Assembly (NCBI GenBank): GCA_965112155.1
Contig: OZ218098.1
Direction: 5' to 3' (one strand)
Length of the DNA: 64,000 nucleotides
Origin: Podarcis liolepis
Taxonomy: Eukaryota
Part shown: positions 13,826 to 25,614 of the stretch, in pieces
How the letters are laid out: the number at the start of each line of letters is the position of its first letter
How positions within the stretch are numbered: position 1 is the first letter of the stretch
Made by a program: the position numbers and the translations under genes
Notes under the pieces: generated by a model
Database searches by the model: none
What the model was told of the DNA's origin: nothing
Seen by the model: only the letters and a program-made list of their open reading frames with translations

Positions 13826-14613
13826 GTACCTCACCTGTCTTTCTTCTCTCCTCACCATGCCCATGCAGCAACAGAAAATGTCTCCCATGGCTTTGCAGAT
13901 GATGGGAGGGCAGTGGTGGGAGGGAAATAGGACTGAACTGCGCTGGGATCAGGTTTTATTAAGGGGTGATATACAAATATCCAAAACTAAGTTTTTATTG
14001 CTTAGCCCAAAGGCCATCAACGGTGAATCAGTTTAATGTGGGGCACACCACTGAGTATAATTAGAACACAACATAATGACATAATCGGTTACAATATACA
14101 ATATATACCTTAATAAATTTTAGGGATTCGGAGCCCTTTCAGCAGTTCTGTTAACTGAAGTCGTTCTTTCCCTGAGTAGCTCCAGGATATATTACATCAC
14201 TGGGAAGGACCTCAGCCTTGTGAGCCAAATGATGAGTTGTTCTCTTTCCATTCTCCTGATGTGAGAGAGCCTGAAATTGTATCTTTAGATATCTGTATAG
14301 GGAAGAGGAGGCTGGTAAAACAATAGCTTGTGTTCAGCTTGTGAATTATTAAACTGGATAACTAATGCAAAAAAGGGAGGAGGATTAGTTGCCCCTTATG
14401 GTGTGTTTTTTCTATGACACTTTCTTTCTGTTTCCACCCCAGTTAGAAGGTCTGGCAGTGTGCCAAAGCCCTTAAGCATTAAGAACTTGTGTTCTTGCCC
14501 CAAACAACCTTACCTACCATTGTTATGTTGTCTCATTTTCCCCCAAGTAAATTTCAGGACAAAATTTAGAATACTGGATCTTTTCTTTTGACAGGTGTGG
14601 AACATAGGGGGAA

Positions 14614-14615
<2 letters not shown>

Positions 14616-14657
<42 letters not shown>
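14616..14657. repeat. (GT)n microsatellite
   Basis: Direct reading. Confidence 0.95.
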
Positions 14658-14660
<3 letters not shown>

Positions 14661-15177
14661 AGTTGGGAGAGGGGATAGCTTAATGATACTCACTATCTAT
14701 TGCATTAACAATGAATTCTAATAATGCAGGAACTGCTTATCACAGAGGAATTCAGTGGGAAATTTTTGCAACCACAGAATTGAACCACCAACGCTGTTTG
14801 TTTTCAAAAGCTCCAGTATAAATATCCTGTTAGACAGGACTATTGTGAATAACAACCACTCATCGCTGTGACTTAGTATCTCCCTCTGCTTCTGATTTGC
14901 CCATTTGCCTCTGAATCTTTTTGTATCTTACCAGTTTCCAGTTGTACTTCAAACCCTCTGTTACTAATGTGTTAAATTAGAAGGCTGCAGAAAGATTCTC
15001 ACTGCAGCACAATACTGGGATTTAGTGCCTCAGTTGCAACAGAGGCTATGTGAGCAAATATATTAGCTCAGGGGATTTACATGGGCTCCATCTTCTGATA
15101 AAATAGGAGAAGTGCAGTGGAAGAAGTTTGGGGGAGAAGAAGTGAACAGCCTGCATAGATCTCTGGGTAAATGCTTT

Positions 15178-15226
<49 letters not shown>

Positions 15227-15306
15227 TTTCGTAGATTTTCACGGGTACAGGAATGCAGGTTTTGGTGTCTTCGGGTGTCTTCCCGTGTAAGAGTTGGGGT
15301 GTCTAG

Positions 15307-15344
15307 GCGACGTTTCGACGAGGTCTCACTCGTCATCTTCAGGC
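15307..15344 (-). ncRNA. Mirror copy of the minimal hammerhead ribozyme-like motif
   Basis: Exact reverse complement of 15533-15570. Confidence 0.65.
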
Positions 15345-15532
15345 TGGTGCTTTCGGCTTCTTGTTACTCACTGCTTCCTACTTTCCTCTGCATCGGCGGC
15401 AGCCGCAGCGTGGCGCACGCGCGCCAGCACCCAACTCCAGAGTTGGGTGCTGGCGCGCGTGCGCCACGCTGCGGCTGCCGCCGATGCAGAGGAAAGTAGG
15501 AAGCAGTGAGTAACAAGAAGCCGAAAGCACCA

Positions 15533-15570
15533 GCCTGAAGATGACGAGTGAGACCTCGTCGAAACGTCGC
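15533..15570 (+). ncRNA. Minimal hammerhead ribozyme-like motif (sense to SLC25A22)
   Basis: CUGAAGA(U)-stem II GACGAG/CUCGUC with 6-nt loop-GAAAC-GUC; stem I and III very short. Confidence 0.65.
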
Positions 15571-15942
15571 CTAGACACCCCAACTCTTACACGGGAAGAC
15601 ACCCGAAGACACCAAAACCTGCATATATATATATATATATATATGACAGTGGAGTGCACTGTGTGTTATGCTCAGAGAATATGGTGTTGTGACAGCCACA
15701 TAAATATTTTACTTAGAGCTAAAATTCAACAGCACAACTTAACTGGATAAAGGCGGTTTCTAGTGACTTATCAGAGGGCAGTACAACTGACCTTAAGCAA
15801 TGTTCAGGTCATTACATTTGTGGCTGGCCTATTCATCCTTCTGTCAGAAGCAAGACATTTATGTTATGTCATTATCTGTAACTTGCATGCTGCATTCATG
15901 TTTATTGCGGTAAATGACAACTCTGTCTTGATTCCTCTTCAG

Positions 15943-25470: not shown

Positions 25471-25614
25471 AGGCTATCAGCCTTCAGGCCACAAATAGGT
25501 CCCCCCCCCATGGAAATGTGACCAGGAAAGGTGTGACACAAGGCTATCAGCCTTCAGGCCACAAATAGGTCCCCCCCCATGGAAATGTGACCAGGAAAGG
25601 TGTGACACAAGGCT
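25471..25614. repeat. Tandem duplication of a 70-bp unit
   Basis: 25471-25540 repeated at 25541-25609 (C9 vs C8 only difference), AGGCT at all three junctions. Confidence 0.95.

Follow-up and report, generated by a model that had tools for sequence, protein, structure and literature searches.

Results

Structure of the insertion

The window, by which we mean the whole 64,000-nucleotide stretch of Podarcis liolepis DNA that was analysed, contains a mitochondrial-carrier gene (PF00153) which we take to be SLC25A22-like, its name being that used in the original prediction for this locus and its orthology presumed. One intron of this gene holds a young Poseidon-type Penelope-like retrotransposon (PLE) in a single head-to-head insertion, built around a perfect inverted repeat of 185 bp (15253-15437/15440-15624, 100% identity). 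The features of the insertion are:

13826..15942, + strand: host intron holding the insertion
15181..15224, no strand: (TA)n run, left junction (nearly all family copies are flanked by such runs)
15225..15254, - strand: 30-nt PLE 'tail' (ORF ~+85 to +114), in this arm only, marking the downstream RT start
15255..15366, - strand: antisense arm, pLTR exon and ORF start
15309..15342, - strand: minimal type I hammerhead, mirror copy (sequence motif)
15367..15437, - strand: captured CEP19 5' exon piece, mirror copy
15438..15439, no strand: 2-nt spacer at the palindrome centre, differing by eye from the host bases that precede the exon piece
15440..15510, + strand: captured piece of a CEP19 5' non-coding exon, 71 nt, 97% identical to C5:67460261-67460331
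15511..15622, + strand: sense arm, pLTR exon, ending at the upstream RT start and without tail
15535..15568, + strand: minimal type I hammerhead, sense copy, predicted cut after 15568
15535-41, + strand: hammerhead core box C3-A9
15541..15543, + strand: PLE ORF start codon, inside the hammerhead (A9, U9.1 and G10.1)
15542, + strand: extra U of the hammerhead
15543-48/15555-60, + strand: hammerhead stem II, 6 bp
15561-64, + strand: hammerhead GAAA box
15566-68, + strand: hammerhead cleavage triplet
15623..15644, no strand: (TA)n run, right junction

The sense arm begins at the base right behind the element's polypyrimidine-AG acceptor, and the host exon replaces the acceptor itself. In the pLTR exon, a stop codon is reached within 40 nt in each of the three frames. 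Outside both TA runs lies a 5-nt direct repeat (15176-15180 and 15644-15648), a possible, weak target duplication. The tail corresponds to the stretch between the two RT start sites of Poseidon_Ac (PAc) from Anolis carolinensis (Frangieh et al. 2024, PMC11167929).

The element family

Exact copies of a pLTR 25-mer numbered 5,455 in the 1.57-Gb genome, and the pattern of the pLTR–ORF junction was found in 384 copies. Both orientations were present in 34 of 46 clusters sampled among the first 100 sites listed. The window copy retains the start of the ORF; in family copies L028 and L041 a single ORF encodes an RT (RVT_1, E 2e-15) followed by a C-terminal GIY-YIG domain with a weak match (E 0.001, residues 589-628, 19.8 bits vs a Pfam cut-off of 22.6 bits), the arrangement of EN+ PLEs. 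Also as in EN+ PLEs, the pLTRs lie in partial tandem or inverted arrangement, with a tail at one end (30 nt here, 30-40 nt in the group). Inspection by eye revealed no extra cysteine linker before the endonuclease. The hammerhead/ATG layout, likewise judged by eye, is as in PAc and would place the family with Poseidon-type rather than Neptune elements. In the full copy L041 the frame is open from the hammerhead-embedded start codon.

Arms of family copies end either at ~+84 or 30 nt further, at the end of the tail. In normal copies a pyrimidine-rich stretch ending in AG precedes the base that matches 15511, giving a predicted splice acceptor 30 nt before the start codon. No splice donor of the element's own was found, there were no self-spliced copies among the 182 sites viewed in the census described below, and no joint skipping the intervening sequence was seen in RNA from a related organism. 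Direct repeats of ≥5 nt flanked 9 of 75 insertions, against 2.9 in shuffles, and a general target-site duplication was rejected on this weak excess. A MITE-like master palindrome was also rejected, the commonest short centre being shared by only 9 copies. Some insertions (flanks of L127, L205 and L151) lie within repeats in which TA usually forms no more than a short stretch; insertion itself may generate the (TA)n flanks instead of finding them in place.

The paired hammerhead motifs

The original prediction for this DNA described a hammerhead at 15535-15568 and an identical one on the minus strand at 15309-15342. A sequence check reproduced every coordinate of the plus-strand motif and located the second motif within the 100% inverted repeat. 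Assignment to the minimal type I hammerheads of PLEs, with a vestigial, palindromic helix III, is supported by features common to the published PLE motifs: the core boxes, the extra base (9.1, between 9 and 10.1), G10.1-C11.1, a long helix II, the palindromic 15.2-16.2 and the presence of dual motifs on opposite strands. Helix I differs, with 2 contiguous pairs (the predicted number was about 2) where 4-5 bp are typical. Because 24 nt separate the acceptor from C3 downstream of it, helix I is left unchanged by splicing here. A comparable neighbourhood exists in D. virilis, where the element's intron ends next to the ribozyme; in the present element the spliced partner is a host exon, unlike in published PLE elements with minimal hammerheads.

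Searches with the motif alone were uninformative: a loose hammerhead pattern had 8 matches in the window vs 6.3 +/- 2.7 in shuffles, which is not above chance, and the Rfam scan that had been proposed as a check matched no hammerhead model at E<=10 and returned chance miRNA-like matches only. The motif is believable because of its setting, a PLE pLTR with the ORF start codon inside the hammerhead, as published for PAc. The two motifs are a single sequence copied into two arms and hence not independent. Copies of the element were near-identical and showed no covariation in stem II; a search for diverged hammerhead motifs returned 4 hits, against 20 with the control, and no new family was among them. 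No read ends were listed at the ribozyme cut in RNA runs of the related organism, a weak test with fragmented libraries, and none of 362 arms in a selected, biased set started exactly at the cut.

It had further been proposed that the mirrored arm is a built-in antidote, silencing a hammerhead that could cut SLC25A22 pre-mRNA, and that this arrangement may explain why the insertion is tolerated. The masking itself is borne out by in silico folding, in which the probability of stem II was 0.98-1.0 in the isolated sense arm vs 0.0 in the whole palindrome. One-strand A>G changes were also present in 30-50% of reads at L041:1448-1531, in the inverted-repeat part of the pLTR (runs X23 and X24 of the relative); judged from RNA alone, they fit ADAR editing of palindromic copies and hence a hairpin in vivo. 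Inverted pairs are, however, the default outcome of insertion, as seen in the clusters above and in other PLEs (PMC8557442), and dual minimal hammerheads on opposite strands, 100-700 bp apart, have already been described (PMC4209133). Hammerhead monomers of PLEs showed no cleavage (PMC4209133), and the anole homologue needs the element's protein for cleavage and can be dispensed with for insertion in vitro (PMC11167929). The window copy is, moreover, too young for selection to show. Head-to-head insertion already explains the twin motif, so the antidote is unnecessary, and we consider it highly improbable. The hammerhead pair itself is ordinary, the usual minimal hammerhead of a Poseidon-type PLE; it would be a passenger, uncut in the template RNA and doubled by the geometry of insertion.

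A CEP19 exon piece at the palindrome centre

The centre of the palindrome, overlooked in the original prediction, is not element sequence. Positions 15440-15510 had one other genomic match, C5:67460261-67460331 (97%), which lies upstream of the CEP19 coding exons (PF14933, E 6e-37) on a different chromosome. The match stops exactly at a GT donor, behind which a 392-nt intron follows in the host. Host exon boundaries, including that of CEP19 exon 1, were read from genomic sequence.

A census was taken of every site with changed five bases before the junction (6+9+46+29+23+26+43 = 182), and all were viewed; a script gave 174 distinct sites among the loci it was able to parse, 132 of them with element-derived upstream sequence. 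Foreign DNA with a distant source lay between two element arms in 12 inserts, all of which were mapped, to 11 host loci (in Mb, C5:67.460, C11:73.976, C4:96.132, C14:24.655, C7:66.583, C7:14.305, C7:23.206, C3:97.344, C16:33.714, C3:65.144 and C1:83.52). Left out of this set were L110 (a local duplication), L074, L201 and L228 (single-arm or filler-like) and direct joins to flanking DNA. The 12 inserts, roughly 0.5% of insertions, are a lower bound because ~5,280 normal-context sites fall outside the census, and exons ending in the acceptor's same five bases would be hidden among them. The source lay on a different contig from the copy in 11 of 12 cases, and most captured pieces resembled CpG-rich first exons, the first-exon call being made by eye for all but CEP19.

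In 10 of the 12 inserts the host sequence continues with GT(A/G) exactly at the junction, and in the remaining 2 it does so within one base. The two inexact cases come from one multicopy locus (C1:83.52 Mb), and their donor-like sites contain either a single additional G or a single substitution. With a background probability of 0.029 for GTR after G, the probability of at least 10 such cases in 12 is 3e-14. The exons end in GAG (three), AAG (three), ATG (two), CAG, CGG, TAG and GGG (one each). Because these ends vary, fixed microhomology fails to explain the junctions. Fixed GAG microhomology and a cap-templated C had been considered as the cause from the first three cases only, whose GAG bias stemmed from the query; they were dropped when other exon ends followed. 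All 12 inserts nevertheless end in G, the same base as the acceptor's G, and a 1-nt microhomology is possible case by case. The inserts thus show the pattern that defines exon trapping, a host exon that ends at a donor and joins the element's acceptor in a retrotransposed copy, with (TA)n flanks in place of the L1 hallmarks, a poly(A) tail and target-site duplication.

Two sources have features of their own. A tandemly duplicated locus at C1:83.51-83.54 Mb (L260, L261, L277 and L278) gave two different exons to two independent captures, which sit at C8:75.69 Mb and C15:16.52 Mb. At C5:24377101-24377328 (L127/L128) there is a mirrored capture of a cold-shock-domain exon (weak CSD match) with its source at C7:66582808, presumably a LIN28-like gene. 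The latter capture hints that captures happen in cells of the germ line or early embryo.

Discussion

A probable chimeric RNA template

The genomic copies display the palindrome structure, the donor- and acceptor-exact junction at its centre and 11 further inserts of this kind. On this sequence evidence, the junctions were most likely made by the spliceosome, the template being a sense, spliced host–PLE chimeric RNA. A spliceosomal origin of the junctions implies that the sense template was spliced and still had its hammerhead uncut. Junctions of this kind might also arise without splicing if the RT, on reaching a favoured RNA 5' end close to the acceptor, halts there and then jumps to host RNAs by microhomology. 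Many truncation and inversion junctions do fall within 12 nt of the acceptor position (in a set selected for that), at least a G is common to the acceptor and all 12 inserts, and templated filler with no donor exists (L110, a local duplication). Nothing, however, would direct a jumping RT to donors in 10-12 of 12 cases (P ~3e-14), and none of the 43 sites where a base other than G precedes the junction had a mirrored foreign insert. The donor statistic already largely refutes such jumps, and we give them a very small chance.

We therefore return to a spliced template, copied in three steps. A host pre-mRNA would be joined by splicing to the acceptor in the pLTR, 30 nt ahead of the ORF start. 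The element protein would bind the 5' part of the ORF in the chimeric RNA and nick both strands of an AT-rich target, with one cDNA primed at ~+84 and another at ~+114. Both cDNAs would extend into the host exon and be linked through their 3' ends, so that the resulting palindrome has a single tail. In vitro, the protein of the anole element nicks and extends both target strands from two internal RT starts (PMC11167929). Both arms carry the same unique junction and have different 3' ends; this unique chimeric tag makes it likely that both cDNAs came from one RNA molecule. In 4 of 5 clearly asymmetric captures (L012, L127, L157 and L165, with L114 as the exception; by eye) the tail-less arm extends further 5' than its tailed counterpart, a pattern that a single cDNA folding back cannot produce. 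Two cDNAs on opposite target strands, the one from +84 ahead of the one from +114 on the same RNA, would account for the asymmetry.

Proposed splicing, cis or trans

A source acting in cis must be a sense copy with acceptor, tail and probably more of the ORF, located downstream of the host donor. In one assembly and haplotype, none of the 11 host loci had a qualifying copy in the 40-180 kb that were scanned (103 kb after CEP19, a scan with a positive control; 180 kb for four hosts, 80 kb for one and 40 kb for five). Three hosts did have sense acceptor copies downstream, at distances of 27 kb, 21 kb and 103/179 kb; these were of another subfamily, lacked a tail or had a different tail end. For the hosts on C1 and C3, the complete contig junction list contained no sense pLTR–ORF copy within 7 Mb downstream. 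CEP19 intron 1 comprises 392 nt only and has no TA run over 4 nt. RNA runs X21-X24 from the relative (pLTR depth 20-100) gave no joint or loose end at the acceptor among the loose ends listed, and their reads over the pLTR probably derive from passive read-through.

As no usable downstream source copy was found, cis exon trapping in insertions since lost competes with trans-splicing, in which transcripts of the element that begin at an unpaired acceptor acquire cap-proximal exons of unrelated host pre-mRNAs. Trans-splicing would accommodate the failure to find a usable cis source at any of the 11 loci behind the 12 captures, the empty 7 Mb downstream of the C1 and C3 hosts, the tiny CEP19 intron and the CpG-rich, first-exon look of most captured pieces; a donor of the element's own and a self-spliced copy were both absent from what was viewed. 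Potential sources are also few, only 384 copies carrying the pLTR–ORF junction that the anole enzyme needs in vitro (PMC11167929). Against it, chimeric reads were absent among those listed from the relative's RNA, and short introns are still possible as targets, since (TA)n flanks may arise during insertion. Trans-splicing is rare in vertebrates. The family is, furthermore, so young that its sources may mostly be polymorphic, and acceptors in sense orientation within introns should tend to be purged. Polymorphic sources are invisible because a single assembly was examined. One haplotype of a highly active family was at hand, and, as SVA_F1 shows, a source that is polymorphic can be lost (PMC12593883); for these reasons we hold cis trapping to be probable and trans-splicing rather unlikely. 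Our favoured account is thus that a host transcript was spliced in cis onto a polymorphic sense insertion now gone from this haplotype, and that the chimeric RNA was copied twice by the element RT.

The three-frame stops behind the acceptor suit an ORF fed by foreign 5' exons, whether in cis or in trans. A bolder version of trans-splicing, which we regard as doubtful, would make the pLTR an orphan acceptor that takes capped first exons from unrelated pre-mRNAs, a spliceosomal snatching of caps and promoters; the palindromes would be fossils of chimeric mRNAs, and the all-frame stops would shield the ORF 30 nt later. Trans-splicing, if true, would be a new means by which a retroelement obtains promoters and caps from its host.

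Comparison with known elements

PAc is the closest system for comparison. By layout, both elements have the start codon where stem II begins and the cut ~26-27 nt downstream, and they share a pair of RT starts that delimit a 30-nt tail near +114, AT-rich targets and an RT followed by GIY-YIG. The first 172 nt of the PAc ORF are required in vitro (PMC11167929). Unlike here, that paper describes no acceptor or capture of host exons, and its text does not mention splicing or palindromes (PMC11167929).

Capture of a host first exon is known from SVA elements. Splicing of exon 1 of MAST2 into a polymorphic SVA gave rise to SVA_F1 (PMC12593883), and SVA exon trapping or 5' transduction is also described for MRPS18A (PMC12593883; see also Hancks 2009 and Damert 2009 in its references). 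In both systems, as we read the PLE captures, a host first exon is spliced to an acceptor within the element and then retrotransposed, and the source can be polymorphic. SVAs are, by contrast, non-autonomous and L1-driven, with poly(A), TSD and a cryptic acceptor, whereas here an autonomous PLE has its acceptor just before its own ORF, the exon is doubled in a palindrome and each capture is a single event. The proposed mechanism thus works like SVA trapping by analogy, yet its products are not those of SVA/L1.

Among PLEs, host gene transduction has been reported in Adineta vaga (Arkhipova et al. 2013, PMC3846280), a 5'-UTR intron has been described (Craig et al. 2021) and inverted copies are standard (PMC8557442). 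The captures resemble these elements in having host DNA between pLTRs, palindromes at inverted junctions and a putative pLTR intron upstream of the ORF. In Adineta vaga introns were retained, which led to the proposal of an antisense template (PMC3846280); here the copied RNA was likely spliced, pointing to a sense template. Spliced captures therefore bear on this open question of PLE biology, and speak against an antisense template at least for these copies. A literature search covering few subscription journals found no report of PLE exon trapping or trans-splicing, nor did the available parts of PMC6431247 and bioRxiv 10.64898/2026.07.22.740005 contain one. Hammerhead, tail and palindrome are already known, and splice-mediated capture of host exons by a PLE, as read from the sequence, would be the new part.

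The likely derivation of both arms from one RNA means that the in vitro system already at hand can be used to test how head-to-head PLE insertions originate. The captures point to a strong exon trap in thousands of young copies, and provide PLEs with a means of duplicating 5' exons of the host, among them one of the presumed LIN28-like gene.

Further observations on the family and the window

On the antisense strand of the pLTR (L028:2787-2880 and other full pLTRs) a TATA-like box is followed ~60 nt later by a near-consensus splice donor, which suggests a putative promoter in antisense orientation that, as in L1, would have a first exon of its own. An array at C4:19591465-19597737 has at least 17 units of 379 bp in two opposite blocks, each unit with a pLTR–ORF junction, and looks like a retrozyme-type tandem array. 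At L028:7500-7800 (C9:2254.5 kb) a cluster of at least 4 element units lies ~250 bp upstream of a CpG-island first coding exon. Elsewhere in the window, positions 25471-25614 hold a short direct duplication, with blocks of 38-44 nt at ~70-nt spacing that are 100% identical.
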